A stretch of DNA of 64,000 bases from a phage. Of the stretch, positions 549 to 21,460 are shown piece by piece. Under the pieces are notes generated by a model, which had not been told where the DNA came from, searched no databases, and was given only the letters and a program-made list of their open reading frames with translations. The DNA is taken from sequence record NC_129898.1. One strand, given 5' to 3'. The translations under genes and the position numbers were made by a program. Each line of letters begins with the position of its first letter. Within the stretch, counting starts at the first letter, position 1.

Positions 549-577
549 TTGACTATTGTTACAAAATTTGGTAAAAT
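549..577 (+). promoter_or_regulatory. sigma70-like promoter (TTGACT-17-TAAAAT)
   Basis: Near-consensus -35 and -10 hexamers with 17-nt spacer, followed by RBS GGAGGA and GTG at 611. Confidence 0.6.
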
Positions 578-610
578 ACCTTGTAGAGATTTTCATACCG
601 GAGGAGTGAC

Positions 611-2112: not shown

Positions 2113-2799
2113 ATGGCAGAGATTAAGTCGGATGTCAACCACATCCACACTCTGCCAGATTTTGTTCAGGGAGGTCTTGACTACCTACCTGGAGATTTTC
2201 TGGCTGAGAAGGTTAATTTAGTCACATTCTTAACCGTGTACCTTAAAAGGTTGGAGAATGTTGATAAGATGCTGGTAGGTTTGGCTGAAGGAAGACTGCT
2301 TAACAATGCCAGCGGAAGATACCTTGACGAAGTTGGTAATCAACTTGGTATTCTTAGGAATGGGCTTTCAGATGCAGATTTTCGTGCTACCTTGGTTATT
2401 CAGCAAGCAGCAGCATCAAGGGGTGGGACTCGCGAAGATGTCATCTCCACCTTGCGACAATTGTTCGGAAGAGACAATTTCGATACGTGGAAAGGGGACA
2501 ACTTCAGGTTTGACATAAACATTAGAAAAACCTGCTTTGACATACTGCAGTCTATCGACCAGATCTTAGATATGCTGCCATTGCCTTGTCATTTGCGTCT
2601 TACAGAGTCGCAAGGGCAAGCTTTTGGTTTTGAAGGGGACTCTACAGCTCTCGGCTTCGGGTCGGTGTGGGAAGAAAACCAGTTCGGTGTTGGAGGGTTG
2701 GCTACTTTGCTATATGTTCCTGACGTAAGACCTGATTGGGACACCACAACTATTTATTGTGAAAGTATTACAGTAAACGCAACTAGACAGGAGGGTTAA
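2113..2799 (+). CDS. hypothetical protein, putative structural
   Basis: 228-aa ORF tightly packed in the structural operon; stop overlaps the next start (TAATG). Confidence 0.6.
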   Translation: MAEIKSDVNHIHTLPDFVQGGLDYLPGDFLAEKVNLVTFLTVYLKRLENVDKMLVGLAEGRLLNNASGRYLDEVGNQLGILRNGLSDADFRATLVIQQAAASRGGTREDVISTLRQLFGRDNFDTWKGDNFRFDINIRKTCFDILQSIDQILDMLPLPCHLRLTESQGQAFGFEGDSTALGFGSVWEENQFGVGGLATLLYVPDVRPDWDTTTIYCESITVNATRQEG

Positions 2800-4871
2800 T
2801 GGCAACAGCTGTTTTTAAACCTTACCGTGATTACTCTACAATGGCTGCACGGTTTCATTACCGCACAGTTCAGGATACTGCAGTTCCAGGTAGGGATTAT
2901 GATCATGTTGAGGGCGATGTAACTATCCCGGTTGGGGCAACCAGTATTGAGATCCCTGTAGAAATTGTTGACAAATTGCCAAACAGGTTGCCAAGAAGCT
3001 TCTTTATGGAGTTTTCATCAAACTCCCAAGGGGTTATGATTGGAACACAAAGAGCAAAATGTACAATAGTTTCAGATGAGAATCTTGACAGAATATCTTG
3101 GGATACCGTTGAGGAGAGAATGTTTCACCCAAGATATTGGGTTACAACCACACAGCAGACTGAAAGCACCTGTATTGTTGCGGATAATAACTGCTGTATT
3201 AACCGTTTAGTGTCAAGAACATATGGAGGCATGGCTGGGTGCATTTGGGAAACAGTTGACAAGTATGACCATTTCGGCATTGGATTTGATGATCACTATG
3301 AGATGAGAAACACCAAGCTTTGGTTCAGAATGTCAATAACTAATGCCAGCAACTTCTCCACCCCTGAAAAGATGATTATGACTGTAGACCTTGTTGATGG
3401 TACAATCATCTATGTTCCTTTAGCTCAATATGCTGTCAGCATCTCAGAGGATAAGAATGTTGCAGAAATTCATATTGATTTCGAGGACTGCGTCGGGATG
3501 GACCAGAACAACAACATGATGGGTGTTGATCCTCGACAGGTGAGAAGGATTCTAATACCACTTATGCCTAAAGATTGGGTAAGTAATAGCACAGACCCAA
3601 GAACGGAAAATGTAGAGTGTGAGTTGCGTCTAGATCTGCTTCAGCCAGACACAGGCTGGAAAATGATGCAACTTAACAATATCCAGGTGAAAGAGCACGA
3701 CGTTGGGATCTGCACAGCATATGACGATATGTGGAACGTATCTCCTTTAAGGGTGTTGAGCAATATCAAGCGTCTGGGCTATACCGGAACCATAAACCAT
3801 TATGTTGGTATGAGCCATTATTATGATTACACATGGTCCGGAACCCAATGGTCTATAAACAGGACAGGGGCTCTAAACGCTGCAGCTTATAAATGGCACG
3901 ATGACTTTATGTATAATGCCAAGCGACATGACTTCGACGTTATGCAGTCTGTAAGCTTTGAGCTTTATAGCGATGCCTGTCCGTTAGAGTGGACCCAGAG
4001 AGATTGGAACGATAACTATGCTAAAACAGGCTATACGCCTTGTAGTTACCTCTTGTCTCCAACCATTGAAGAGGGTATGAATTTCCTTACTGCAGTATTT
4101 AAGAATTTTGCATCAGCCGCTATGAGAAACAACCTGCCAGTAATTATGCAGATTGGTGAACCGTGGTGGTGGTTCAATACCGATACTCGTAAGCCTTGTA
4201 TTTATGACTACCCTACAAAACAGGCGTTTTATGATGAGACTGGTGAATATGCACTAGACATTGGGACTGTTGACGATCCTAAAACTGGCGGTGTTTATGA
4301 CAAGTATGTAGCATTTTGTCGTGGTAAGCTTGGAGCTCGTATTGCAGCTATTTCAAAGGCAATAAAAGCACACGCTGCATCGGCTCAGATGACAGCTTTG
4401 CTGTTTTTTCCGACCATTATGGAAACCGAGCTTACGCAAAAGCTGAACCTTGCTGACCAATATAAAAAGGAAGCAGGTGCTCTTGATTTCTTCTGCACTG
4501 AGTGCTACGATTGGGTGATGCAGGGTGGTATTGAAAAGGCAAAAGAGTCTGTAAACATACCTATCGTTAAGTTAGGTTGGCAACCGTCTGAAATACAATA
4601 CCTTGCAGGGTTCGTTCCTAGCAAAGAGCTTGCTCCGGTATATGGCTACGACCCAACCAGGAATTACCAAGAATTTTTATGGAGATGCATCTGCGGAAAC
4701 ATGGCAACCATAGAGTATAGATACCCTGAGGTAAAACAGTATGTGTGGGCATACCCGCAAGTAATGTCTGACAGCATCACTGTTACCGCTAGGGATTCTA
4801 CCGTGCTTCATATGGGGCAGGTTGCTCTGAAAGGGTATGTAGAAGATGTTGTCCCGCCAGACTTCTCATAA
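2799..4871 (+). CDS. hypothetical protein, putative tail/baseplate structural protein
   Basis: 690-aa ORF translationally coupled to the upstream gene; lies just upstream of the tail-fibre genes. Confidence 0.6.
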   Translation: MATAVFKPYRDYSTMAARFHYRTVQDTAVPGRDYDHVEGDVTIPVGATSIEIPVEIVDKLPNRLPRSFFMEFSSNSQGVMIGTQRAKCTIVSDENLDRISWDTVEERMFHPRYWVTTTQQTESTCIVADNNCCINRLVSRTYGGMAGCIWETVDKYDHFGIGFDDHYEMRNTKLWFRMSITNASNFSTPEKMIMTVDLVDGTIIYVPLAQYAVSISEDKNVAEIHIDFEDCVGMDQNNNMMGVDPRQVRRILIPLMPKDWVSNSTDPRTENVECELRLDLLQPDTGWKMMQLNNIQVKEHDVGICTAYDDMWNVSPLRVLSNIKRLGYTGTINHYVGMSHYYDYTWSGTQWSINRTGALNAAAYKWHDDFMYNAKRHDFDVMQSVSFELYSDACPLEWTQRDWNDNYAKTGYTPCSYLLSPTIEEGMNFLTAVFKNFASAAMRNNLPVIMQIGEPWWWFNTDTRKPCIYDYPTKQAFYDETGEYALDIGTVDDPKTGGVYDKYVAFCRGKLGARIAAISKAIKAHAASAQMTALLFFPTIMETELTQKLNLADQYKKEAGALDFFCTECYDWVMQGGIEKAKESVNIPIVKLGWQPSEIQYLAGFVPSKELAPVYGYDPTRNYQEFLWRCICGNMATIEYRYPEVKQYVWAYPQVMSDSITVTARDSTVLHMGQVALKGYVEDVVPPDFS

Positions 4872-4883
4872 TCAGGAGATAAA

Positions 4884-5924
4884 ATGTCAAAACCTAGTTT
4901 TCCATTAGAGATTTGGGCAGAGGAGGATCAGGTTCTGCCTAACACCCACAGACAGAACAGGCTACGCCCGATTGATGATTTGTGGAGAAAAGGTTGGGAT
5001 CTTGGTCAAAAGCCATCCTGTGAAGAACTTAACTATATTTTCAATATGCTCGGGACTTGGGCAAAATACATTGCTGACGAGCAGATCCCCGCTCAAGAAG
5101 GCCGTTATCTGGTACGTGATAATAACCTGAGTGATCTTTTGAACATCCCTGTTGCCCGTAGAAACCTTGGGATTATTACTAAGGAAGAGGCAGACGCCAG
5201 GTATGTAAAAGTTACAGGTGATACAATGACAGGCCCATTGGGTTTGCAACGTATCAACTTTAAAGCTGCCGAGACAGATAAGGCTTGGATAGAGACAACT
5301 ATCGGCCCAGATAAGACAACCCTTGACTTTGGGTTAAGTGATAATATTGGGGCGTTCGATGATGGTGGCACATCTACAGTAGATGCGTTCCGTTGGAGAT
5401 TCCAGCCAACTCAGCCGAACATTAACCCAGAGTTCACTCTGATGTACCTGAACGCGATCACGGCTAATCGTGCGTTGTTGAAAGTGGTGGGCAATGTTGA
5501 AGTTGTTGATAACATGCGATGTAATAACCTCACCATTAGCAGCGCAGCAACATTCACCAACTGCAATGTAGCTAGTCAGTTGACGGCTGGGTCAGTATAT
5601 GTCAATGGCGGTGCAAGTTGTGACAGTATGGTTGTAAGAAGCCAGCATTGTGTTGTCGGTAACAGAAATGTGGTGCGCTCTGTGAATGGAGTGACGGCTA
5701 ACGGCAACGGAGATGTAACGATCACCATCCCGCAGACAGGTGTACAGGATATCAGAATCGGCGCAAGACTTGTTGATGGTGTTTCTGAATCTCCAGTTCG
5801 CAACGGCTACGTTGTCACAGGTTGGCATTTTGGTGATAAAAAAGAGATGCGTGGCTCAACCTACTGGGCAGGGCCTTTACAGAAACTTGTAAATGGTCAA
5901 TGGATCACTGTTAATTATGCGTAG
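4884..5924 (+). CDS. tail fibre protein (paralog A)
   Basis: 346 aa; contains the tail-fibre motif ARRNLGI...YVKVTGDTMTGPLGL; followed by a tail fibre assembly gene; N and C termini shared with the ORF at 6940. Confidence 0.75.
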   Translation: MSKPSFPLEIWAEEDQVLPNTHRQNRLRPIDDLWRKGWDLGQKPSCEELNYIFNMLGTWAKYIADEQIPAQEGRYLVRDNNLSDLLNIPVARRNLGIITKEEADARYVKVTGDTMTGPLGLQRINFKAAETDKAWIETTIGPDKTTLDFGLSDNIGAFDDGGTSTVDAFRWRFQPTQPNINPEFTLMYLNAITANRALLKVVGNVEVVDNMRCNNLTISSAATFTNCNVASQLTAGSVYVNGGASCDSMVVRSQHCVVGNRNVVRSVNGVTANGNGDVTITIPQTGVQDIRIGARLVDGVSESPVRNGYVVTGWHFGDKKEMRGSTYWAGPLQKLVNGQWITVNYA

Positions 5925-5938
5925 GTCGGAGGACTAGC

Positions 5939-6523
5939 ATGAAAATACTTCAAGAGTTTAAGCTTTACCAGCCGGGATCTGGCGAATACCACACCAACAA
6001 AGGTACCAAGGAGCTGACTCCTCAGGAGGTTGAGGATTACACGGCATACACTGGATATTTTTTACGTAATGATGATGGCGATTGGTATGTGCAATCACGA
6101 ACACTGCGACAAGAAAATCCAGGCTGTATCTTCCTACTTGTTGACGAGAAGGGTATTCTTAAGACATCTACAGAAGAACCTGATGCCTTGTGGCCTGCTC
6201 CAGGTCTTCGTGTGGTTATCGCCAAAAAAGAAGAGGTACCAGAAAACATTATGCTCCACCACGACGCTTTGCGTTTAGTTGGTGATGAATTTGTCACAGA
6301 CAATGAATTCTTTGTTCAACAGGCAGAGGGTGTCATAGAGACAGAACTTGCTTGGGCTACTGCTAGAATTGGTGCCTATCAAGACATGATTGACCTTGAA
6401 TACGATCTTACTGATGACCAAAAACGCAACATCAGAGATTTGAAAATGTACAGGGTAAAACTTCTTGAAATAGATACATCTAAAGCCCCTGACATTTTCT
6501 TCCCGGAACGACCTACCCTCTAA
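5939..6523 (+). CDS. tail fibre assembly chaperone (Caudo_TAP/Tfa-like)
   Basis: C-terminal motif KMYRVKLLEIDTSKAPDIFFPERP resembles the conserved Tfa C-terminus (WKKYRV..NRVDTS.APDI.WP); sits immediately 3' of a tail-fibre gene. Confidence 0.7.
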   Translation: MKILQEFKLYQPGSGEYHTNKGTKELTPQEVEDYTAYTGYFLRNDDGDWYVQSRTLRQENPGCIFLLVDEKGILKTSTEEPDALWPAPGLRVVIAKKEEVPENIMLHHDALRLVGDEFVTDNEFFVQQAEGVIETELAWATARIGAYQDMIDLEYDLTDDQKRNIRDLKMYRVKLLEIDTSKAPDIFFPERPTL

Positions 6524-6534
6524 GAGGAGGTGTT

Positions 6535-6849
6535 GTGGAGTTGGATTTGGCGGCATTGTACGGTATCTGCATGGGTACCGTTGTCCCGATCTGTGTATGG
6601 GCTTTCAACCAGTGGCACACCAAATGGAAAGGCATTTCCAAGAGGCTGGATGAGCTGGAGAAAGACCTCATTTTAGTGAAAAATAGCATGGTTACAAAAG
6701 ATAGACTTGATTCCATTATTGAGACCCGGTTAAGTAAGCTAGAGGCCGATATTAACGACCTTAAGCAAGATGTCAGGACAGATGTCTCCGGTATCAGAGC
6801 AGATGTGCAAAAGATTTTACACATGCTTGTAGAGCATAGTAAAAGGTAA
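6535..6849 (+). CDS. small membrane-anchored coiled-coil protein
   Basis: 104 aa, GTG start after RBS GAGGAGG; N-terminal hydrophobic segment then heptad-like charged region. Confidence 0.5.
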   Translation: MELDLAALYGICMGTVVPICVWAFNQWHTKWKGISKRLDELEKDLILVKNSMVTKDRLDSIIETRLSKLEADINDLKQDVRTDVSGIRADVQKILHMLVEHSKR

Positions 6850-6859
6850 ACAAAGGTCA

Positions 6860-6892
6860 GAACGGCAAGGATGCCGTTCTTGCATTTTGTTC
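6860..6892 (+). terminator. rho-independent terminator
   Basis: Hairpin gaacggca-agga-tgccgttc followed by a T-rich tail. Confidence 0.6.
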
Positions 6893-6908
6893 TCTAAAGT
6901 GTTAAAAT
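6880..6908 (+). promoter_or_regulatory. sigma70-like promoter (TTGCAT-17-TAAAAT)
   Basis: Hexamers with 17-nt spacer overlapping the terminator tail, upstream of the second tail-fibre gene. Confidence 0.45.
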
Positions 6909-6939
6909 AGTCCTTAAGGAATTTTCTCAGGAGAACGTG

Positions 6940-7983
6940 ATGACTAAACCAGTTATCCCTCTTGATATTTGGGCCAATCAGGATGTTGTGCTTGAAAATA
7001 CAGGAGAGTTGAACAAATCTCAACCGAACAAAGAAGAGAGATTGAAAGGTTGGGATATGACACAAAGGATAGCATGTGAAGTTGTTAACTTTGAACTCCA
7101 CATGCTCTCTGCGTGGCTAAAGCATTTAACAGAAGATGTTGTCCCAGGATGGGATAATAGATTCTTAATGGTCACTAATAATCTGGCAGACGTTCCAGAC
7201 AAAGCTGCTGCACGTCAAGTTCTCAATGTATACTCGCCTGAAGAAATGGATGACCTTTATGTTGACAAGGCTGGAGACACAATGATCCAGACTCAAACTT
7301 TAGGTCTTCAAAGAATCGAGTTTGCATCCGCGTCAACAGACAATGCGGCGATATACACCACCATAACTTCAGACAAGACGATGATGGATTTCTGGATTAT
7401 GGACAACATCGGTGGTGCTGACGGCACAGACCTTGATGATCCCTCTCACCAAATAGACGGTTTCCGTTGGAGATTTCAACCTTCCGGTGGGCAGCCTGTG
7501 TTTTCGGCTATGAAGCTCAATGCTATAACTGCCAACCGTGCAAGACTAGCTATCCAAGGAAATCTTGAATGCAATGATGCAAAAAGTTCCTCTGCAAATG
7601 CTAATGCGGTAACGATACCTAGAGCCACTGTTAATGGACAACAATCCTGCGGCAGCGCTCAAATAGGTGGAAGAGTAGATTGTAACGATAAAACCGCCAG
7701 GGGTCAATATGCAACAGTTGGTGGAAGAAACGTGGTCCGCAGGGTAAATGGCAGTAGCGCAGACAGTAGTGGTAACCTTACTATTCCTATGCCTAGTAGA
7801 GGTGTTGAAGATGTAAGGATAGCAAACCGTTTCAGAACCACCTACAGAGAATCAAGAGTATACCCTGGGCATGTAATGTGCTCCGGCAATTACGCCTATA
7901 AACACCCGTATCAGGGTGACTATTGGACTGGAGCTATTCAAAAATTTGTAAACGGTCAATGGATCACCATATCTTATGCTTAA
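6940..7983 (+). CDS. tail fibre protein (paralog B)
   Basis: ATG at 6940 follows RBS AGGAGA (the track starts at GTG 6937); N-terminus IPLDIWA and C-terminus KFVNGQWITISYA match paralog A; central region divergent. Confidence 0.7.
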   Translation: MTKPVIPLDIWANQDVVLENTGELNKSQPNKEERLKGWDMTQRIACEVVNFELHMLSAWLKHLTEDVVPGWDNRFLMVTNNLADVPDKAAARQVLNVYSPEEMDDLYVDKAGDTMIQTQTLGLQRIEFASASTDNAAIYTTITSDKTMMDFWIMDNIGGADGTDLDDPSHQIDGFRWRFQPSGGQPVFSAMKLNAITANRARLAIQGNLECNDAKSSSANANAVTIPRATVNGQQSCGSAQIGGRVDCNDKTARGQYATVGGRNVVRRVNGSSADSSGNLTIPMPSRGVEDVRIANRFRTTYRESRVYPGHVMCSGNYAYKHPYQGDYWTGAIQKFVNGQWITISYA

Positions 7984-7992
7984 AGAGGGTAA

Positions 7993-8259
7993 ATGAAATT
8001 AACTCAGTTTTTATGGGGACTGGTTGCAGCATCTGATGACCCTACAAAAGTGTCCCAATCTAAGCTATGGTCAAACATAGGCATGGCAGTGATGACTGGG
8101 GTGTTTATTCATATGGGGTACAATGATACGCTTCCTGAATGGTATGCGTGGATATACGCACCTTCGGTAGCCTGCCCCCAGCTTATTAGCAAATTCATCT
8201 CGCTCCGGTGGGGTTGCCAGCACCCTGACCACGTTAAAAACGAAGAGCAAAAAGCTTAA
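7993..8259 (+). CDS. hypothetical protein
   Basis: 88-aa ORF downstream of tail-fibre paralog B; hydrophobic stretch present. Confidence 0.45.
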   Translation: MKLTQFLWGLVAASDDPTKVSQSKLWSNIGMAVMTGVFIHMGYNDTLPEWYAWIYAPSVACPQLISKFISLRWGCQHPDHVKNEEQKA

Positions 8260-8268
8260 GGAGAAATC

Positions 8269-10014
8269 ATGGCGCAAGACATGACAAGCTTTGAGCAGGC
8301 GGTAGATCAAGTAATTGTTGATTCTGAACGTTTGCACCTGATTGTCAACGGTAACGCTGTGGATGAAGTTGTCGTAGAGGATGGTACCACTATCCCTACG
8401 GTACGAAAAGCCATGCTTGACACCCTTTATTTTAAAACGCCACCAATCCCTTGGGCGTATGGTGCATCCACAACAGTTTTTAACCAGCTGTATGAGTTTA
8501 AAGGAGACACAGGTCCCCAATGGTGGTACGCTCCAGCAGCATCAAAATCTAATCCGGTGAGGATGCCAGCAGATCCTTCACAATCTCCGAACTGGAGATT
8601 ATATACCGATTCTGCAGTAATGGCAAAATACTACGCAAAACTTAACAGCCCAAGATTCGAAGGTGACCCGAGAGTACCTACACCTCCAATGGACGATAAG
8701 TCCGAGTCTATAGCAAACACAGAATTTGTTGTTGACTATGTGGACAGCATATTTAAAGCCATGGAGGGGATGAAAGTTACTGTAGGGTCTTTGGTGGTAA
8801 AAGGTCTTACAGAACTTGCTAACACCATAGTTGGTGGCACCCTTACCATACACGGGCCTGTTAATGGAGCGGATTCTACTGCACGCTTCAGGAACCTAAT
8901 CCTTACTGCAAATACTTCTACACTAACTTTTGCGTGGAGCGATCCTAAGCATGCAGACTGGAGAAGCACAGAGCTGCAACCTCATGAAGTGGTCACCCAC
9001 AGAGTTATAGCTGACACTATAACTTCTGGGAAACCAGTGGCTAATAACAACGATGTGCATTTTGATGGTCTAGGTAATAACTTTTTTGACTACGTGTACA
9101 TTCGTGGTAATGCCATGAAGGCAGCAACCGAACCGACATTGCAGGTTGATGGGACCACCAGGGTTAAGAACCTTGAGGTGACAGGTACCGTTACAGGGAT
9201 AACCTACTCTGTAGATGGCACCATGATCTACCCTAGCTATATTGAAAGCACTGGAGATGCACTGATCAATGGAGATTTAGAGGTTGGCGGATCTATAGTC
9301 ATTCGTGGCACAGCATCCGTTCAGAACATATCTTTAAATACTCTGAGGGTGAATGAGCGTGCCACTTTTGAAGGAGAAGGGCTTACAGCCAACAAAGGTG
9401 CAATTACCGAGCTGACAACCACTACTCTAACTGCAACAACTGCAAACTCTGAAAACTGCAACGTTACCCGCAACTTGCAGGTAAATGGAGATGTTAGTTT
9501 AAACGCAGCAGGTACCGGAACCACTTATCTTCACAACCTTGAAATATCCGGCACGGTGACTGGGTGGCTGCCAGACTTCTCTAATGTTAACTTTGTCTGC
9601 AACGGCATTAACTCCAGTGGTAAGATAACCACCTCTCAAGAAATTGAGGCTGGTAAAACTATTACTGCCCCTACTTTCCACGCAGGGAAGGTAGATTTTG
9701 ATTTAGAGGAGGTTGACGCATCTAGTGGGACATGGACACCTAACGGGCAGGCCAGCATGTATGTTGTCCACGCGAAAGGGGATTTTACAATAGGTCAATG
9801 GCCTGGAACATCGGCTGAAGATAAACCTTACCCGTTTACTGCAATCATCTATGTCATTCAAGATGCTGTAGGCCACAACGTGACTTTGCACGATAAATAT
9901 GCCATACTGTCGGCTACCCCTGTCATTAACAACAAAGCCAACAGTGTTACCTTGCTACAATTGACATATTGTGGTGTTGGTGATATTGTGGATGTGGTTA
10001 TTGCACAACGTTAA
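8269..10014 (+). CDS. putative tail fibre / receptor-binding protein
   Basis: 581 aa, rich in Thr/Gly/Asn with repeated VTGTVTG-like segments typical of fibrous beta-structure proteins; in the fibre locus. Confidence 0.55.
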   Translation: MAQDMTSFEQAVDQVIVDSERLHLIVNGNAVDEVVVEDGTTIPTVRKAMLDTLYFKTPPIPWAYGASTTVFNQLYEFKGDTGPQWWYAPAASKSNPVRMPADPSQSPNWRLYTDSAVMAKYYAKLNSPRFEGDPRVPTPPMDDKSESIANTEFVVDYVDSIFKAMEGMKVTVGSLVVKGLTELANTIVGGTLTIHGPVNGADSTARFRNLILTANTSTLTFAWSDPKHADWRSTELQPHEVVTHRVIADTITSGKPVANNNDVHFDGLGNNFFDYVYIRGNAMKAATEPTLQVDGTTRVKNLEVTGTVTGITYSVDGTMIYPSYIESTGDALINGDLEVGGSIVIRGTASVQNISLNTLRVNERATFEGEGLTANKGAITELTTTTLTATTANSENCNVTRNLQVNGDVSLNAAGTGTTYLHNLEISGTVTGWLPDFSNVNFVCNGINSSGKITTSQEIEAGKTITAPTFHAGKVDFDLEEVDASSGTWTPNGQASMYVVHAKGDFTIGQWPGTSAEDKPYPFTAIIYVIQDAVGHNVTLHDKYAILSATPVINNKANSVTLLQLTYCGVGDIVDVVIAQR

Positions 10015-10023
10015 TATATCTGA

Positions 10024-10049
10024 CCGCTCCTGACGGGGCGGTTTTCTTA
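10024..10049 (+). terminator. rho-independent terminator
   Basis: Hairpin ccgctcc-tgac-ggggcgg followed by ttttcttat. Confidence 0.6.
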
Positions 10050-10062
10050 TCTGGAGAACACA

Positions 10063-13000
10063 ATGCTTCCAATCCCTTTGCTAAAACTTGGTCGTCATTT
10101 CCTCGATAAGAGGGGTGGAGTTAAGGAACTTGCTGTTCTGTCATACCCAATAGACAACAGTGACGGTACAAGCACTACAGTAGCCTATGTAAATAGCTTA
10201 GCTATACTTTTTGACAATGGTCAGCTTAATATTACGGGTTATAACAAATTCGGGGAGTGTCGCACTGGGGATAGTGACCCTATAAACTACCCTAGCGAAA
10301 CAGCCTGGAATGTTGATCATGTGTGGAGAGCAGACCGTGCGTTTGTGATCCGGACTTTTGATAACCAGTTTTTCTACATCGGCTGCACTGCAGGCCTTAT
10401 CGGGTCAACTGCGGCAGGTGGTAATGATGTTTGCGTAAACGAGTGGACACCTCTTCCTGAACAGATTGTTAAAGGGTTGCACCTTGATACCCACCCAGAG
10501 CGCCTTGTTGAGGTGATGGGCGGTATTAACAACACTATCTGGGTTATTGCAGAGGCAGAAGGCACTGGAATACTGAACCTGTACGGATCGGGTAACAACA
10601 CCTACGGATCTTTGCATGTAGATAAAAACCAGCATGCAACTCCTGTAAAGATTGGTGAAACATCAGAAAATCCTGAAACAGGTCCTTGGAAAAACCCAAG
10701 CATTAACTGCGAGGTGCATGATAACTCTGTTATTTTCGGTGGCCCTAGAGGTTTCTGGATTGCTGGATATGACTTTCTGAGAAATAATAGCAGAAACACT
10801 CTCGTTTGGCCCCCTGCTCAGATTACCCGTGACGATTTGAGGGGCATTCCTACAGATGAGGAGTGGAAAGGGTTCATGTGCGGTCCGAACGGGGCAGTGG
10901 TTGTAACACAAAGAATGCACAGACCTGATGACCAGCAACTTGTTAACGTATTCTACGGGCAAGATGTTTGGGGAGATGATACGTGGCGTGCCTTGAATAT
11001 CACCTACACCCATGAGGTAATAATGGCTCGTGGGTACGGCACAAGTGGCATTTTCTTCAACAATGGTACTAAGCAGTACCGTGGATTCTCTCGCAACTTG
11101 TGTAATGATATTGGTGCACAATCTGCAAACAATAGCCCTAGGGCTAATTTTATCCACTATCAGGCTCTTGCTACAGCTAAATATGTTGAGCAACGCCTGC
11201 CAGTTAGCTGGACAGAGAGTGTTTATTTCCAAGGCATCCACAGGGAAGGTTTCTTAGGAACCTTTACTGTTGTTAATGGCAAACTTTGGTGGTCAGGCAT
11301 CCCAAGAGGAAGTTTTGCAGGTTCTAACAACCTGTTTGGCGGCAGACTTAACAGTCAGGGGTTCACAGAGGTTCCTGAGAATTGGTATAAAAATGTCCCG
11401 GTAGATAGTTGGGGTGTTGAGGATATTTTCGACGTTAACGGTGTTAGCAGCGTTAGCAATATTTACATTGGTGACACGGTCAAGATGAAATTGAAGCCTC
11501 AGCCAGAGGGGGCTACGTTCATTATTGACAAGGTTGAACTGGTAAATGCTGCAGGCACGGTTGTTACAGATGCAAATTACCAATTCTCCACCAACTGGAA
11601 CCACGGTGGGGCCAACGAAGTTATTGTTACTCAGTATAACAGGAATGTTAACAGGCGTGGCCTGTACTCTGTAAAAATAACCTATCATGACAAACATGGT
11701 ACAGGCAGGACCCACACAACAAGGACTTTGAACTGGAACACTATTGTTCCGGCGTATCCGTCTGATGGTAAATGGCATACTGTCGGTAGAAACAAACAGT
11801 TCCATGTTAATGACACTGTATACTTTGGACTGAATGGGGCTCAGCCTGCAGTAGAAGGGGATACATCGTATATGGTCAGACTCCATAGAATGGATGCTGG
11901 ATCAGTAACTTATGATGTTACCCAAGAGATTTATGATCAGCGACGAAATACCTACAATAACTTGGTGCAGACGCAGGCCTTATGGGAGTTCAACCCCAAC
12001 GGCAGAGGTGGTAAAATGCTGCAGATCAACGAACAAAATGGGACATCGTTGACTGTTCACGAACACTCAGACCCGTGGCCTGATCCCGGAAAACCTCACC
12101 CAGGTGCTCGCACACTAAAAATTGTCAGCCATGACGTAGGATATTTCGGAATACGCTGGGAAGCAACGGTAAGATATGCCGACGGGACGACAAACAATAT
12201 AGGGATCACTCTTGGTGGAACCAGTGAGGATAACTCGCTGAAAATTGCCTACACACCCAGAGGCATCTCTATTGATAGTATGGATGTTGTTCGCAACGGT
12301 TACGGGGATGTGAACATCAAAGTTACTCTTGGTGAACATCTTGGCGGGGAAAGGATCATCATGTATGCCTTTGATCATGACCCTCGCACCAATGGAACAT
12401 ATGCAGACCAGGCGTGGAGCTACCTGATAAGCGCACCTGAGCCAAATACTAAAGAATTCTACTACGGTATGAAGCGAGATGTGTGCAAGAAAACAGGGAC
12501 ACATGACTGGATTGCGATCTGTGTTAAAGATGAACGTACCGCTTGGAACGAGCCTGTTAACAGATGGTTCATAGGTATTCCCACCCGAAGTGATAAATAC
12601 GTTGAAGAATATATTGTGTGCATGGGCGGCACCAACCTTAATATGTGTTGGAACGAGGATGCAAACAACAAATACTCTGATTATGACTATATGCGGGACT
12701 ATTCTTGCAATCAGTGGTTTAACCAACCTGGATATGCTGATCGACAGGCAAGAGTGAATCCTGCAATCTTCACAGATACTCAGGTTTTCTTGACAAAACA
12801 GGCTAACGAGGTTCAGACCTTCAAGAACAAATACGATCCTAACAAGTGGTTTTATAACTGTTATGGCGCATTTTTCTGGGGTCCTGGCGAACTACCTAAT
12901 GGAGGATCTTGCTTCGAGGCTGCAACTTACGCCAGTGACAGGTTTATGGGGCAGGTTAAGAAGTACAAGATAATCCCTGGTCCTGAAACTCTGGGCAATG

Positions 13001-15699
13001 CCGTTGACCCTTATATCGTCATGACCGTGCTGAGATCAAACATGGATGGGACATCCATGTCTATGCAAGTTCCAGTAACAAACGGGTACAAACGTGTTGT
13101 GATGATCATTAAGTGCGACTTAATAGGTAAGCAAGTTCTTGCAGAAAACGGAACCTCAACACATTTATTCGAGACTGCTCTGCATTATCAGTTTGCTGAT
13201 TCACCTTTTGCAGGGGATAAGAGAATATCTGATACAGACAATGCTCGATGCAAGAAATTTATGCTTGGTGGTGGATGGTGGTGGTATGAATTTGATTTAA
13301 CAGACAAATTCACCGACACGTCTAAAGTGGTGACAGGGCTTCGTCTAGATCTTGGCGAAAACATGCACAAAAGTGTTTGTGATGGCACCTACGGTGACCC
13401 AACAATCTACTTAAAGTATGTTTCTTTTGAGCACCCAGAGGATGTCGTTTATGGTCCAAAACTGAGACTGTTTGGCAATTGGATTGCTAAAGACAGGGCA
13501 GGTATGGGTAAAAAGGTGAGAGGGTTCTTAGTTGATGCAGGAACAGAAGACATGTTGGTTAATGCAGTGTGGCCTGAATTACCGGGAACTCAGTGGGACA
13601 ATTCTGCTAAGTCTATAAACTGGTTCAATATCCACAGAGCTATGTGGGCAACTAACTGCTATCTGTGGAAAGAGTTGAATGACGGCGCTTTCGGGTTTAC
13701 TGGTGGCAGAAGAATGGCAATCATTTGCTGGACAACGCTGCAGAGATGTTATGACCATGACTACGAGATTGGAGGCAGGGCATGGAAAAATATAAGGGAT
13801 AGAATCATAACTAACTTTGCAGATCCTAACGGTGGCGGGGCGTATGGTTTCGACTGCAGCAGGCTTATCCATTTGAACGGATCTTCGGCCTATAAGAAAG
13901 AAGGCTACTCTGGGTCCATGATTGAATGGGGCTTGGTAAAAGATTCTCGTGTGTTGATGGGTCAGCAACTTGCTGCTGCAATAGGACCGAACGCAGTACA
14001 ATCTGTTAAACCAGCATGGTTCGATATCCCATTATGGTCCTCTGGAACACCAGGAACTGCTGCAATCAACCCTACCACTGGGGATCTGGAAATCTCCTGG
14101 GAGGACCTGAAGCAGGTCGGTGGCTGGGATAAGACAGGGTACCAGGTGCAATGGTGGAGATCTGACGGATCATTGGCGGCTGATGAGTTTGTTAAGGACA
14201 ATTTCTACACCATGTCCTCTGCAAAAGCACAGCAATTGTTTGGTCAGGCCACTCCGTCAACGATCACCATGTCCATGTGCTGTAAAGACACCAGGACTGG
14301 AGCTCTGGGGCCAAGGGTTGCTAAAGTTTTCTCAGGTATTAAATGGAATCTCCCTGTTCAAAGTGTTTCATGGAAGCAAATAGGTGATAACAAGCTGCTG
14401 GTTACCCCAGCTTGTCAGTTCAACGCAACTCTTAACGTTGATCCTGCTGTTGCGGCAAACTCAGCTAAAGCTTCTGACTTCTCTGTGTCTAACACTGCTA
14501 TGGCAGATGTGAGGAAGATTGACACGCTGAACGCCAGAATTACCTGTAAAAACACTTATGGCACATTCCAGATCATCAACAACTTCACAGATGCTGATTC
14601 TAAGGTAGTGAGGACAGCAAGCCAAACTCTGAGTTTAGGAACTCTGGCCTACGCGGCCCTGATCACTGAACAGTCGGCAACACTCCAAGGAGGCGGTGTA
14701 GGCAAGTCCATTGCAACACCTGTGTGGAAGCCAAATGAGTGGGTTGTGTTTGATTTAACTGTGGACTTCTCCAGCGATAATAACTGGACATGGGTAAGGA
14801 ATTGCTTGTCACAACTGATGGGTGGTCCAAACTCCGTTAGTGATAGCCAAGACTCCACTGACCCGAGTGTGTTTCAGGTGGGTAAAACTCACCCAGAAAC
14901 TGGGGCACCGTTGCCTGACAGGAAGTATGCTTTGGTTTGCATCTCTTACGGAAAAGCAGATGTAACCTTCTCAGGGACACACACATATAACGGCACTTAC
15001 AACTTCTCTAAAAAGTACAGCCTCAAGGCAGGTAACATTGTAGACGAGGTTGGTGCGTTGTATAATCCAGGAAACGGGATAGGGATTGTAGGTGGTAAAC
15101 TGCAGATGCAGGAACCTTCTATTACCCCTTCCAACGTAGCCGGGATTAGAAAGACTTGGGAAAGTAGTAATACCAACATTGCAACAGTGGATGCTACCAC
15201 AGGACTAGTAACATTTAAAGCTCCTGGCAATGTCACTATAACGTTTGTAGCTACTGATGATGCAGGGCGCAAAACGTCTTCAACATCTTTTACTGTCAAA
15301 CAGATGACACCACAGTGGAGAATGTGGATAGGTACAGCAACAAACGGGGCATATCCTAATCCGGCAGGGACTTCTGGTATGAAGACTTTCTCTACAAGCA
15401 AGCCGATGGAGTACGGCAGCGGTCCTAAGGTAGGGCAGATGGTGTACTTTGGTGCGTATATTCCTGAAATTATAGGGCTTCCGAGAAGTCAGCTTCAGTT
15501 GCTGTTTGGGGCTGGTGTTGACGATCTTGCCACTTTCGGGTATAGAGACAACATCGATGCTGCAAGGAGTTCAGGATGGGTAGGGTTCAGAATGGAGTCT
15601 GGAAAGGAAGGCAGGATTCTAGGGACAGCCTCTATAGGTGTTATGTTCCCTGGTGACCAGCAGTATCGTCTAGAAGCCTACGCAACCTTTTCTCGTTAA
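10063..15699 (+). CDS. giant virion protein with Big_2 (bacterial Ig-like) domain, putative tail fibre/adhesin
   Basis: 1878-aa uninterrupted ORF; near the C-terminus the segment ITPSNVAGIRKTWESSNTNIATVDATTGLVTFKAPGNVTITFVATDDAGRKTSSTSFTVK resembles a Big_2 domain. Confidence 0.75.
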   Translation: MLPIPLLKLGRHFLDKRGGVKELAVLSYPIDNSDGTSTTVAYVNSLAILFDNGQLNITGYNKFGECRTGDSDPINYPSETAWNVDHVWRADRAFVIRTFDNQFFYIGCTAGLIGSTAAGGNDVCVNEWTPLPEQIVKGLHLDTHPERLVEVMGGINNTIWVIAEAEGTGILNLYGSGNNTYGSLHVDKNQHATPVKIGETSENPETGPWKNPSINCEVHDNSVIFGGPRGFWIAGYDFLRNNSRNTLVWPPAQITRDDLRGIPTDEEWKGFMCGPNGAVVVTQRMHRPDDQQLVNVFYGQDVWGDDTWRALNITYTHEVIMARGYGTSGIFFNNGTKQYRGFSRNLCNDIGAQSANNSPRANFIHYQALATAKYVEQRLPVSWTESVYFQGIHREGFLGTFTVVNGKLWWSGIPRGSFAGSNNLFGGRLNSQGFTEVPENWYKNVPVDSWGVEDIFDVNGVSSVSNIYIGDTVKMKLKPQPEGATFIIDKVELVNAAGTVVTDANYQFSTNWNHGGANEVIVTQYNRNVNRRGLYSVKITYHDKHGTGRTHTTRTLNWNTIVPAYPSDGKWHTVGRNKQFHVNDTVYFGLNGAQPAVEGDTSYMVRLHRMDAGSVTYDVTQEIYDQRRNTYNNLVQTQALWEFNPNGRGGKMLQINEQNGTSLTVHEHSDPWPDPGKPHPGARTLKIVSHDVGYFGIRWEATVRYADGTTNNIGITLGGTSEDNSLKIAYTPRGISIDSMDVVRNGYGDVNIKVTLGEHLGGERIIMYAFDHDPRTNGTYADQAWSYLISAPEPNTKEFYYGMKRDVCKKTGTHDWIAICVKDERTAWNEPVNRWFIGIPTRSDKYVEEYIVCMGGTNLNMCWNEDANNKYSDYDYMRDYSCNQWFNQPGYADRQARVNPAIFTDTQVFLTKQANEVQTFKNKYDPNKWFYNCYGAFFWGPGELPNGGSCFEAATYASDRFMGQVKKYKIIPGPETLGNAVDPYIVMTVLRSNMDGTSMSMQVPVTNGYKRVVMIIKCDLIGKQVLAENGTSTHLFETALHYQFADSPFAGDKRISDTDNARCKKFMLGGGWWWYEFDLTDKFTDTSKVVTGLRLDLGENMHKSVCDGTYGDPTIYLKYVSFEHPEDVVYGPKLRLFGNWIAKDRAGMGKKVRGFLVDAGTEDMLVNAVWPELPGTQWDNSAKSINWFNIHRAMWATNCYLWKELNDGAFGFTGGRRMAIICWTTLQRCYDHDYEIGGRAWKNIRDRIITNFADPNGGGAYGFDCSRLIHLNGSSAYKKEGYSGSMIEWGLVKDSRVLMGQQLAAAIGPNAVQSVKPAWFDIPLWSSGTPGTAAINPTTGDLEISWEDLKQVGGWDKTGYQVQWWRSDGSLAADEFVKDNFYTMSSAKAQQLFGQATPSTITMSMCCKDTRTGALGPRVAKVFSGIKWNLPVQSVSWKQIGDNKLLVTPACQFNATLNVDPAVAANSAKASDFSVSNTAMADVRKIDTLNARITCKNTYGTFQIINNFTDADSKVVRTASQTLSLGTLAYAALITEQSATLQGGGVGKSIATPVWKPNEWVVFDLTVDFSSDNNWTWVRNCLSQLMGGPNSVSDSQDSTDPSVFQVGKTHPETGAPLPDRKYALVCISYGKADVTFSGTHTYNGTYNFSKKYSLKAGNIVDEVGALYNPGNGIGIVGGKLQMQEPSITPSNVAGIRKTWESSNTNIATVDATTGLVTFKAPGNVTITFVATDDAGRKTSSTSFTVKQMTPQWRMWIGTATNGAYPNPAGTSGMKTFSTSKPMEYGSGPKVGQMVYFGAYIPEIIGLPRSQLQLLFGAGVDDLATFGYRDNIDAARSSGWVGFRMESGKEGRILGTASIGVMFPGDQQYRLEAYATFSR

Positions 15700-19978: not shown

Positions 19979-21460
19979 TTATTTAGCGTACTCGATTAAT
20001 TCTACAGTTTTCCCAAAGCTTGGGATATAATTTTTATTATACCCTTCGGTGAGAACCCATAAAGTATCGTACTTTTTCCACTTGTTGTCAACAGCCTTTT
20101 GTTCAAAGTTATGCTCAAAGTATAGGTCGGTCAGGACGATGACATCTTTTGCATTTGGTATGTTAGCGTCCAGATACTCGAACACGCAAGCGGCTGTTGT
20201 TCCCCATGTTGAGTGGACCTCATAGTTGATCATCTCGTCGATGTTCCCGCGAGTGTATACTTTAACCTCTCCAACCTCAGTTGACCAACAGAACATCGTA
20301 ACCTTGAACTCTTTATACAGATTGCACAACCCAGTGATCTCATTGAACATTTTCTTTAAAGTTCTTTGGGAGATCGATCCAGAAACGTCTAGAGCCACCA
20401 CAATATCTATAGTGTTTTCCGGATTACGACCTGGAACAACAACGTGCTGATTCTTGTTTATAGCCCCAACTTTTCGCATTGTGCTGGTCAAAGACCCAGA
20501 TCGGCGACCGGGTTTTCTATAGGTTAGTTCAGCCTTTCGTTTAGACAGCATACGTTGCTTAATGATGTCTATATAATTGATTACAGGCTTACCTCTGTTC
20601 TTGACAAACTCACGCACAGCCTCAGGGCAACGACCTCCGGAAGCCTGCATTGCTGCTTCCAACATGTCACCAGAGTCCTGCATAGCTTGATCTTTATCAG
20701 ATTGACTGATCACTGGTTGTGGCTGATCATACCCCATCGCCTTTCCAAGATCATCACTAGTGCCACCGTTACCACTCATGTGATCATCGGTTTGTCGTTT
20801 ATCTCCTTGAGAGTTCTCGCCTTTACCGTTCTTACTTTTACCGCTATTCTGATCTCTTTGCTTATCAAGAACCGCATAGACGTTCTCAGCAATCCATCCA
20901 TGGAACCTCATGTCACAGTAGCAACTAGCTAAGAAGCCAAAAGGCTTACCTTTTACAAACGTAGTGCTTTTCCCCTTCGGGAAGAAAACACAAGGTGGCT
21001 TGCTAAAGTCAACCACAAGACCTGTGTTGATAACATGATCACAGGCAATATTGAACAGTTCCGGCTCAAAGCTTTTACCACGGACCAGATGATCACAGAT
21101 AATATGCCCCACCTCATGCGATAGAAGAAATGCCACCTCTTTCACAGATTTGGGGGAATAGAAAACCTCAGCCATCTCAAACTGCTTGTCAGTCAAAGAT
21201 GCCTTAAGAATGGTTTTGCGCTCATCAGCCAATCCCATAACGAACTCAGGACTGTAATAAATGCGTTTATGATCTGTTGCCATGGTGGAGCACCATGTGT
21301 GGTTTTCTACGAACTGCAACCCTGACAACAGTGTGCCATAAAACGGCAGTTTTTCAAGAAGATACATACGTGCTGCCTGCAGCATTCGCAAGGCGTCATC
21401 TTTTTGTGCGGCAATGATTTCTGAACTTCTGCTATCCATTAAAGCTCCAGAAGGGGCCAA
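19979..21460 (-). CDS. vWA-domain protein with N-terminal putative zinc metallopeptidase domain
   Basis: HExxH motif (HEVGHIICDH) in the N-terminal half; C-terminal vWA MIDAS motif DVSGS (IVVALDVSGSIS); Gln/Ser/Gly/Asp-rich linker. Confidence 0.7.
   Translation of the reverse strand: MAPSGALMDSRSSEIIAAQKDDALRMLQAARMYLLEKLPFYGTLLSGLQFVENHTWCSTMATDHKRIYYSPEFVMGLADERKTILKASLTDKQFEMAEVFYSPKSVKEVAFLLSHEVGHIICDHLVRGKSFEPELFNIACDHVINTGLVVDFSKPPCVFFPKGKSTTFVKGKPFGFLASCYCDMRFHGWIAENVYAVLDKQRDQNSGKSKNGKGENSQGDKRQTDDHMSGNGGTSDDLGKAMGYDQPQPVISQSDKDQAMQDSGDMLEAAMQASGGRCPEAVREFVKNRGKPVINYIDIIKQRMLSKRKAELTYRKPGRRSGSLTSTMRKVGAINKNQHVVVPGRNPENTIDIVVALDVSGSISQRTLKKMFNEITGLCNLYKEFKVTMFCWSTEVGEVKVYTRGNIDEMINYEVHSTWGTTAACVFEYLDANIPNAKDVIVLTDLYFEHNFEQKAVDNKWKKYDTLWVLTEGYNKNYIPSFGKTVELIEYAK

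Follow-up and report, generated by a model that had tools for sequence, protein, structure and literature searches.

Probably two co-resident Mu GpS-type short tail fibres with one Mu GpU-like chaperone in a Vequintavirus myovirus

The window analysed here, 64,000 nt of phage record NC_129898.1, contains a tail-fibre locus (positions 4884–10014) with two fibre genes, designated A and B, and a chaperone gene between them. The explanation we consider probable is that A and B are co-resident Mu GpS-type short tail fibres, encoded with one Mu GpU-like chaperone in a myovirus of the genus Vequintavirus. The assignment of the phage rests on a megablast search with the locus, which matched 117 phage records, 110 of them with at least 80% query coverage at 90–99% identity. 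The top matches, Escherichia phages EPFV3, HMD-6 and FV3, share 98.4–98.6% nucleotide identity with the query, and by this measure the source phage is a Vequintavirus, of the FV3 sub-type of the rV5/FV3 myoviruses of E. coli.

The A/B pair is already known. Kropinski et al. (2013) found that gp30 and gp33 of phage rV5 share 42.3% identity and suggested that two lipopolysaccharide (LPS) chemotypes may be recognised (PMC3606486). Maffei et al. (2021), describing the BASEL phages, reported that phages of the Vequintavirinae sensu stricto have a pair of paralogous short tail fibres plus a chaperone, which are homologs of Mu GpS and GpU, and that phi92-like phages and Phapecoctavirus have a single short-fibre copy (PMC8594841). 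Both papers record one chaperone for the pair. The genes in the window are orthologs of rV5 gp33, gp32 and gp30 and of the BASEL pair, with the same order, chaperone and small membrane-protein genes; nothing substantive separates them from those of rV5 beyond the FV3 sub-type.

Fibres A and B and their chaperone gene

Paralog A (4884–5924, + strand) encodes 346 aa and is the ortholog of rV5 gp33 (98.3% identity), with an end-to-end match to phrog_4465 (4.3e-171). Paralog B (6940–7983, + strand) encodes 347 aa, is the ortholog of rV5 gp30 (~95% identity to the rV5-type protein), and matches the same family end to end (9.9e-162); its mechanical open reading frame (ORF) begins at a GTG at 6937, and relatives annotate the ATG at 6940. 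The two proteins align by BLASTP at 43% identity across their full length (E 7e-95), and their global alignment score lies 42 standard deviations over shuffled controls, confirming the proposal of a first-pass annotation of this DNA that the two ORFs are real paralogous fibres. The same annotation described conserved ends and divergent centres, which is not the pattern found. Identity in 30-aa windows ranges from 27 to 63% and is highest in the central block (aa 106–200, ~43–63%) and lowest at aa 46–90, 205–245 and 291–330. At the ends, conspicuous conservation is limited to the first ~12 residues and the last ~15, the latter being nearly identical in A and B. The N-terminal motif of A had also been misquoted as IPLEIWA; the sequence is FPLEIWA. 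Annotation errors occur in public records as well: Escherichia phage A6-1 (PQ510733.1, locus L011 201–2166) calls A a ‘putative tail fiber assembly protein’ and the adjacent 104-aa membrane protein a ‘tail fiber protein’, and we rejected its ‘tail fiber assembly protein (x2)’ as a mislabel of paralog A.

Fibre A has a canonical N-terminal docking module followed by a shaft and a Mu GpS-like tip; in fibre B the N-terminal module is divergent and the tip, also Mu GpS-like, is of a second type. This layout draws on a family profile of 32 members, searched against PDB sequences at E values up to 1. The profile matched the phiTE short tail fibre at the N-terminus and tip (3e-34), Mu S (5yvq) at shaft motifs and tip (4.3e-13), and Mu S' (1.9e-06). 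Taken singly, the N-termini of A and B match the phiTE short tail fibre (9cuy_c) over residues 1–108 (1.7e-19) and 1–74 (5.2e-08), respectively, and A also reaches the Mu S tip (5e-06 in the PDB search, 9e-07 by BLASTP). Residues 3–92 of the phiTE short fibre form a joint docking on the baseplate protein Wedge 1 (PMC11972413), whose ortholog in the window is ORF 2113–2799. The docking module of A and B is of this phiTE/Vequintavirinae type and not of the Mu type. The phiTE fibre otherwise differs, being a single-copy protein of 554 aa with a coiled coil and Ig-like domains that is a proposed flagella binder (PMC11972413). In phi92, the single ortholog of the pair is gp147, which is encoded just after the wedge genes and is followed by a chaperone and a transmembrane/coiled-coil protein; it is 23–28% identical overall, has no B-type paralog, and corresponds to fibre III, six Mu/Milano-like trimers hanging from the wedge (PMC13450770).

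Directly 3' of A lies the gene for a 194-aa tail fibre assembly chaperone (5939–6523, + strand), the ortholog of rV5 gp32, which matches Pfam Caudo_TAP (1.1e-11) and phrog_136 (2.1e-36) and aligns over its full length with Mu U (23% identity, E 0.002). A tblastn search across the 64-kb window found no second chaperone gene, and the gene directly 3' of B encodes an 88-aa membrane protein. The statement that a Caudo_TAP-like chaperone follows A only was thus correct. Being the only such gene in the window, it would most likely serve both paralogs.

Under the explanation we favour, both fibres would be present in virions. The N-terminal module would join a fibre trimer to the baseplate wedge, with the shaft next, and the C-terminal tip would bind the terminal receptor in the LPS core, after which adsorption would be irreversible and the sheath would contract. 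Trimerisation and folding of the tips would be assisted by the Mu GpU-like chaperone from the gene after A; in Mu, the variable N-terminal domain of the chaperone binds the fibre tip and the conserved C-terminal domain drives trimerisation (PMC9608196). The receptor of Mu lies in the LPS core, and that of the window fibres, including the sugar that each tip would bind, is presumed to lie there likewise. Mu differs in that S/U and S'/U' alternate by Gin-mediated inversion of one shared gene head, with a chaperone for each tip, whereas in the window two complete genes lie on one strand, presumably co-expressed, alongside a single chaperone gene, and the ORFs scanned contained no invertase. T4 gp12, which uses gp57A and not a Caudo_TAP chaperone, has the same functional role, LPS-core binding for irreversible adsorption. 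No match between T4 gp12 and the fibres was recovered among PDB sequences at E up to 1, either by phmmer or with the family profile; an HHpred similarity to gp12 was reported by Kropinski et al. (PMC3606486).

Several observations weigh against this explanation. Fibre B alone resembles the Mu S tip weakly (pairwise BLASTP E 0.003), and phmmer returned no match between them at E up to 1. The AlphaFold2 (AF2) monomer models are of low confidence, with predicted local distance difference test (pLDDT) values of 63.7 for A and 55.9 for B. In Foldseek searches 5yvq, the Mu fibre–chaperone complex, was the sole significant match of both models (2.3e-06 for B), in part through sequence similarity; these pLDDT values are too low for conclusions about domains, and such fold matches are weak corroboration that adds little beyond the sequence comparisons. 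One chaperone would moreover have to fold two tips sharing only ~43% identity. Single-fibre phi92-like phages share the same terminal receptor, which leaves the contribution of the second fibre unexplained. Virion proteomics of rV5 is equivocal, as two parts of the same publication disagree: according to its text, total phage proteomics found gp30, gp32 and gp33 (PMC3606486), and its mass spectrometry (MS) table (Additional file 5, 19 proteins) has neither a 346- or 347-aa entry nor any of the six short signature strings drawn from A and B of the window (95–98% identical to rV5 gp30/gp33). Table S3 of that paper flags gp34 with MS evidence, but neither gp30 nor gp33.

Origin of B and exchange of tips

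Relatives with a single short fibre (Av-05, GAP31 and a Salmonella Seunavirus-like phage) encode the fibre, the chaperone, a 104-aa transmembrane protein, a 157-aa polytopic membrane protein, an ~88-aa membrane protein and an ~590-aa fibre. In Vequintavirus, B occupies the slot of the 157-aa gene (L003 7949–8422 in Av-05), whose product is without a Pfam family. In a neighbour-joining tree built from all alignment columns, the A and B clades are sisters (86% bootstrap) and B has a long branch. Taken with the single-fibre outgroups, this topology points to B as a duplicate of A that arose within the Vequintavirus lineage and then evolved faster. The number of nonsynonymous substitutions per site (dN) is 2–3 times higher for B than for A, and its ratio to the synonymous value (dN/dS) against phage DrSchubert is 0.029 for A and 0.070 for B. 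By these estimates B evolves ~2–3 times faster than A, still under strong purifying selection.

The duplicate also has its own late-promoter-like motif. Between the 104-aa gene and B lies a stable hairpin (6859–6880, + strand; −21.6 kcal/mol, z −4.4) that is terminator-like with a weak T tract; it is not in the rV5 terminator list, and a comparable hairpin occurs in the related loci L007, L012 and L014. It is followed, directly upstream of B, by a late-promoter-like element (6888–6924, + strand) equivalent to rV5 P030, with the core TGTTAAAATA at 6900–6909, and the corresponding place in L007, L012 and L014 carries TGCTAAAATA. A pattern search for the late-promoter motif gave two exact matches in the window, the one before B and TGGTAAAATA at 569–578 (+ strand), upstream of the wedge genes and equivalent to rV5 P036. 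Both P030 and P036 are listed as putative late promoters in rV5 Table S4 (PMC3606486). Given the hairpin and the motif, A and B are predicted to belong to different late transcription units, and B would by prediction be co-transcribed with the 581-aa fibre gene downstream of it (8269–10014).

The N-terminal modules of the two paralogs differ in a consistent manner. In 24 other family members, 54 N-terminal positions are conserved to at least 90%. Fibre A departs at seven of these positions, mostly conservatively, and B at 17, including P19E, I30N, L33E, W34R, G41T, P44I and Y62H, changes that are common to B-type sequences. A homologue search with the N-terminal 140 aa of B gave one fragment and was replaced by an exhaustive HMMER search of the first 140 residues against 1.84 billion cluster representatives. 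This recovered two B-type clusters only, that of the window and a 354-aa type (P0034, 58% identity), the next matches being single-copy fibres at no more than 47%. The 354-aa cluster has 172 members, from NCBI Third Party Annotation (TPA) metagenome-assembled genomes (MAGs), IMG, ENA and Logan, on contigs of up to 142 kb. It represents an uncultured Vequintavirus-like sister lineage (L012 116–3254; L014 1927–5065) with the same gene layout as the window. Both paralogs are kept in two further lineages besides the ~116 Vequintavirus records.

The B-type protein of the uncultured lineage is a mosaic. Its first ~140 residues are 52–60% identical to B of the window and 30–45% identical to its own A, and the part from the motif VVGGRxVxRSVNG...ADGNGNL onwards is A-type. 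The protein shares 85% (L012) or 90% (L014) identity with A of the same genome across its final 60 residues, in contrast to 34% with B of the window, and the tips of B-type and same-genome A also agree at the nucleotide level (69% over the last 210 nt in L012, 84% over the last 180 nt in L014). In the lineage of the window the tips differ, A and B sharing 43% identity over the last 60 aa. The N-terminal 125 aa behave otherwise. Across the three lineages they are 79–89% identical among A-types and 56–77% among B-types, and A against B always falls at 37–41%. Since the N-termini fall into two classes throughout and the tip is shared in the uncultured lineage, the stable difference between A and B lies in the docking module, in all three lineages and even where the tips are nearly identical. 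The same pattern indicates at least one transfer of the receptor tip between the paralogs, by gene conversion or tip exchange.

Host range, docking and assembly

The first-pass annotation regarded the locus as one for host-range switching, a claim for which we found no support. Every listed Vequintavirus record (~116) has both A and B, and across these records A is 97.7–100% and B 90–99% identical, with the low dN/dS values given above. In L007, which is more divergent and has the same layout, the C-terminal tips are the best-conserved part of both proteins (90–100%). Maffei et al. likewise saw no considerable allelic variation in the short tail fibres (PMC8594841), and randomly barcoded transposon sequencing (RB-TnSeq) with 18 Vequintavirus and eight phi92-like phages yielded one terminal receptor, the first outer-core glucose. 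The A/B locus is a conserved tail part, among the most conserved of the genus, and not a host-range switch. A switching cassette resembling the Mu G segment, a shufflon or a diversity-generating retroelement (DGR) has as its precedent the homology of both fibres to Mu S, whose tip switches by G inversion. Yet we searched the locus for inversion and DGR signatures and found none, and its invariance across the genus is at odds with such a system. Both genes are complete and on the + strand. The inverted repeats present are short and imperfect (14–19 nt, 74–93% complementarity) with no pair flanking the locus, and no direct repeat is longer than 63 nt (75% identity). Neither a recombinase nor a reverse-transcriptase domain turned up when 16 ORFs between 611 and 21460 were scanned against Pfam. 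The data contradict a cassette of this kind, which we regard as extremely improbable.

How the two fibres are attached is a question on which two tentative answers can be set against each other. The first-pass annotation held that both attach at the same site. This is questionable, because B departs at 17 of the 54 conserved docking positions and A at seven, and because the difference is stable in three lineages. One possible, though doubtful, account is that A and B hold different docking positions or partners on the baseplate and form two short-fibre rings, so that the duplication would concern geometry or valency, with receptor choice secondary. The constant A-to-B distance of the N-terminal 125 aa agrees with this account, as do the distinct N-termini that the paralogs of L012 and L014 retain beside closely similar tips, and B is predicted to be co-transcribed with the gene for the 581-aa fibre, a homolog of which is in contact with the short fibre in phiTE. 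Wedge 1 offers no such sign: a comparison of this protein between one-fibre and two-fibre phages found no feature correlated with the second fibre, and its C-terminal extension is also present in single-fibre Av-05. The divergence of the N-termini could instead serve to prevent mixed trimers, and the 24-member outgroup set behind the counts of departures is dominated by one sub-cluster. The other account, which we hold with similar reserve, has A and B competing for the same six wedge sites, giving mixed virions whose divergent tips reach two LPS-core chemotypes. It draws on the match of both N-termini to the docking region of the phiTE short fibre, on the different tips in this lineage, and on the proposal of two recognised LPS chemotypes by Kropinski et al. 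(2013; PMC3606486). It does not explain why the uncultured lineage has two paralogs with the same tip, however, and it must accommodate the changes of B at conserved docking-module positions as well as the single terminal receptor found for 18 Vequintavirus phages on K-12. The mosaic pattern hints at distinct docking positions rather than competition for one site.

The paralogs might also assemble together, as heterotrimeric fibres, which we consider very unlikely. We know of no precedent for heterotrimers among Mu S-type fibres. Several shaft indels of 2–6 residues separate A from B, with more in the uncultured lineage, and on this ground heterotrimers are unlikely; the two genes also lie in different predicted transcription units. 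What speaks for mixed assembly is the near identity of the last ~15 residues of A and B and, in the uncultured lineage, a whole tip that is 85–90% identical, the tip being where chaperone-assisted trimerisation is thought to start (PMC9608196). Within the favoured explanation of two co-resident short fibres, then, it is conceivable, although we would not expect it with any confidence, that the Mu S-type short fibres of rV5-like phages form two sets with separate anchoring, in which the docking module is durable and the tips are exchanged or homogenised between paralogs. If true, short-fibre valency would be raised, and specificity then split, in a manner not described so far.

Neighbouring genes and significance of the pair

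In annotated relatives the genes follow the order baseplate wedge, baseplate protein, 690-aa protein, tail fibre gp33, tail fibre assembly protein gp32, 104-aa membrane protein gp31, tail fibre gp30, 88-aa gp29, 581-aa fibre gp28 and 1878-aa Ig-like gp27. The window agrees, with Wedge 2, Wedge 1 and an N4 gp65-like protein preceding A, and B 1 kb further along. The first of these genes (611–2101, + strand) encodes a 496-aa baseplate wedge protein (Pfam Baseplate_J, phrog_6), the ortholog of phiTE Wedge 2 and phi92 gp145 in a PDB sequence search (9cuy_T, 3.1e-159; Phi92_gp145, 1.6e-55). The second (2113–2799, + strand) encodes a 228-aa wedge protein identified by the same type of search as the ortholog of phiTE Wedge 1 and phi92 gp146 (9mjn Wedge 1, 6.3e-67; Phi92_gp146, 1.5e-23).

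The third gene (2799–4871, + strand) encodes a 690-aa N4 gp65-like ‘non-contractile tail sheath’ protein with a TIM barrel (PF23845, 9.8e-80; PF23844, 6.8e-13), which has a weak Calx-beta match besides its N4 gp65 N-terminal and TIM-barrel domains. The BASEL label for this protein is ‘lateral tail fiber with glycosidase and deacetylase domains’, and a 2026 preprint assigned NGR surface glycan binding to such a protein for the genus; the 690-aa protein is likely the candidate NGR surface glycan binder here. Its gene is present in Av-05 and absent from Seunavirus-like relatives, and the ~15-aa C-terminal extension of Wedge 1 tracks its presence.

Two small membrane-protein genes, like the hairpin and the late-promoter-like motif, had been overlooked in the first-pass annotation. 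One (6535–6849, + strand) is the rV5 gp31 ortholog, and its 104-aa product combines a single N-terminal transmembrane segment with a coiled coil (phrog_5345, 1.1e-48); synteny keeps it beside the chaperone gene throughout Vequintavirinae and phi92-like phages. The other (7993–8259, + strand) encodes the 88-aa membrane protein, the rV5 gp29 ortholog (phrog_1322, 2.7e-32), and its orthologs hold the same position in Av-05, GAP31, L007, L012 and L014. Neither protein belongs to a Pfam family, and neither Pfam nor PHROG gave a function for them. In rV5, the lysin (gp89) and putative holin (gp129) have gene numbers far from the fibre cluster, and the small membrane genes are therefore not the obvious lysis genes.

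Both large proteins that had been noted downstream of B are present. The 581-aa fibre is the ortholog of rV5 gp28 (phrog_4549, + strand; PF26208 and PF26209 on orthologs), and its N-terminal half (residues 8–339) is homologous to the phiTE long tail fibre (9cuy_g, 2.3e-76), a fibre that docks on both Wedge 2 and the sheath initiator and is in contact with the short fibre (PMC11972413). An intrinsic terminator-like hairpin equivalent to rV5 t028 (10022–10043, + strand) lies 3' of this gene. The 1878-aa Big_2 protein (10063–15699, + strand; Pfam Big_2, 3.1e-08; phrog_15684) is the ortholog of rV5 gp27 and is labelled ‘lateral tail fiber protein with intimin domain’ in BASEL; its gene is among the largest fibre genes, which do vary between genomes (PMC8594841). 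The suggestion of a multi-fibre adsorption apparatus is supported for this phage group, since relatives of rV5 and phi92 carry three sets of lateral fibres in addition to short fibres (PMC8594841; PMC13450770). After the fibre cluster, a leftward block of early-type genes opens with a gene on the − strand (19979–21460) for a 493-aa putative metallopeptidase (DUF2201_N) with a VWA-like domain. We also found the locus, at ~94% nucleotide identity, in 16 to 21 ‘Campylobacter phage’ records (GenBank MG065639–MG065676) whose stated host is C. jejuni; carrying this E. coli Vequintavirus locus, these are probably mislabelled or contaminant genomes.

The rV5-like phages, which rank among the E. coli phages isolated most often, are used in typing sets and therapeutic cocktails, and knowing which fibre makes irreversible contact matters for host-range engineering. 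What is new here is the modular pattern of A and B, in which the docking-module difference is stable and the receptor tip has moved between paralogs, a modest lead for structural work. New, too, is the view of B as a faster-evolving, lineage-specific duplicate that sits in the slot of a membrane-protein gene, with its own late-promoter-like motif behind a hairpin. The conserved VVGGRxVxRSVNG...ADGNGNL motif would be a natural junction for tip swaps, and a stable docking difference combined with a mobile tip gives a testable idea of why the second copy is kept.

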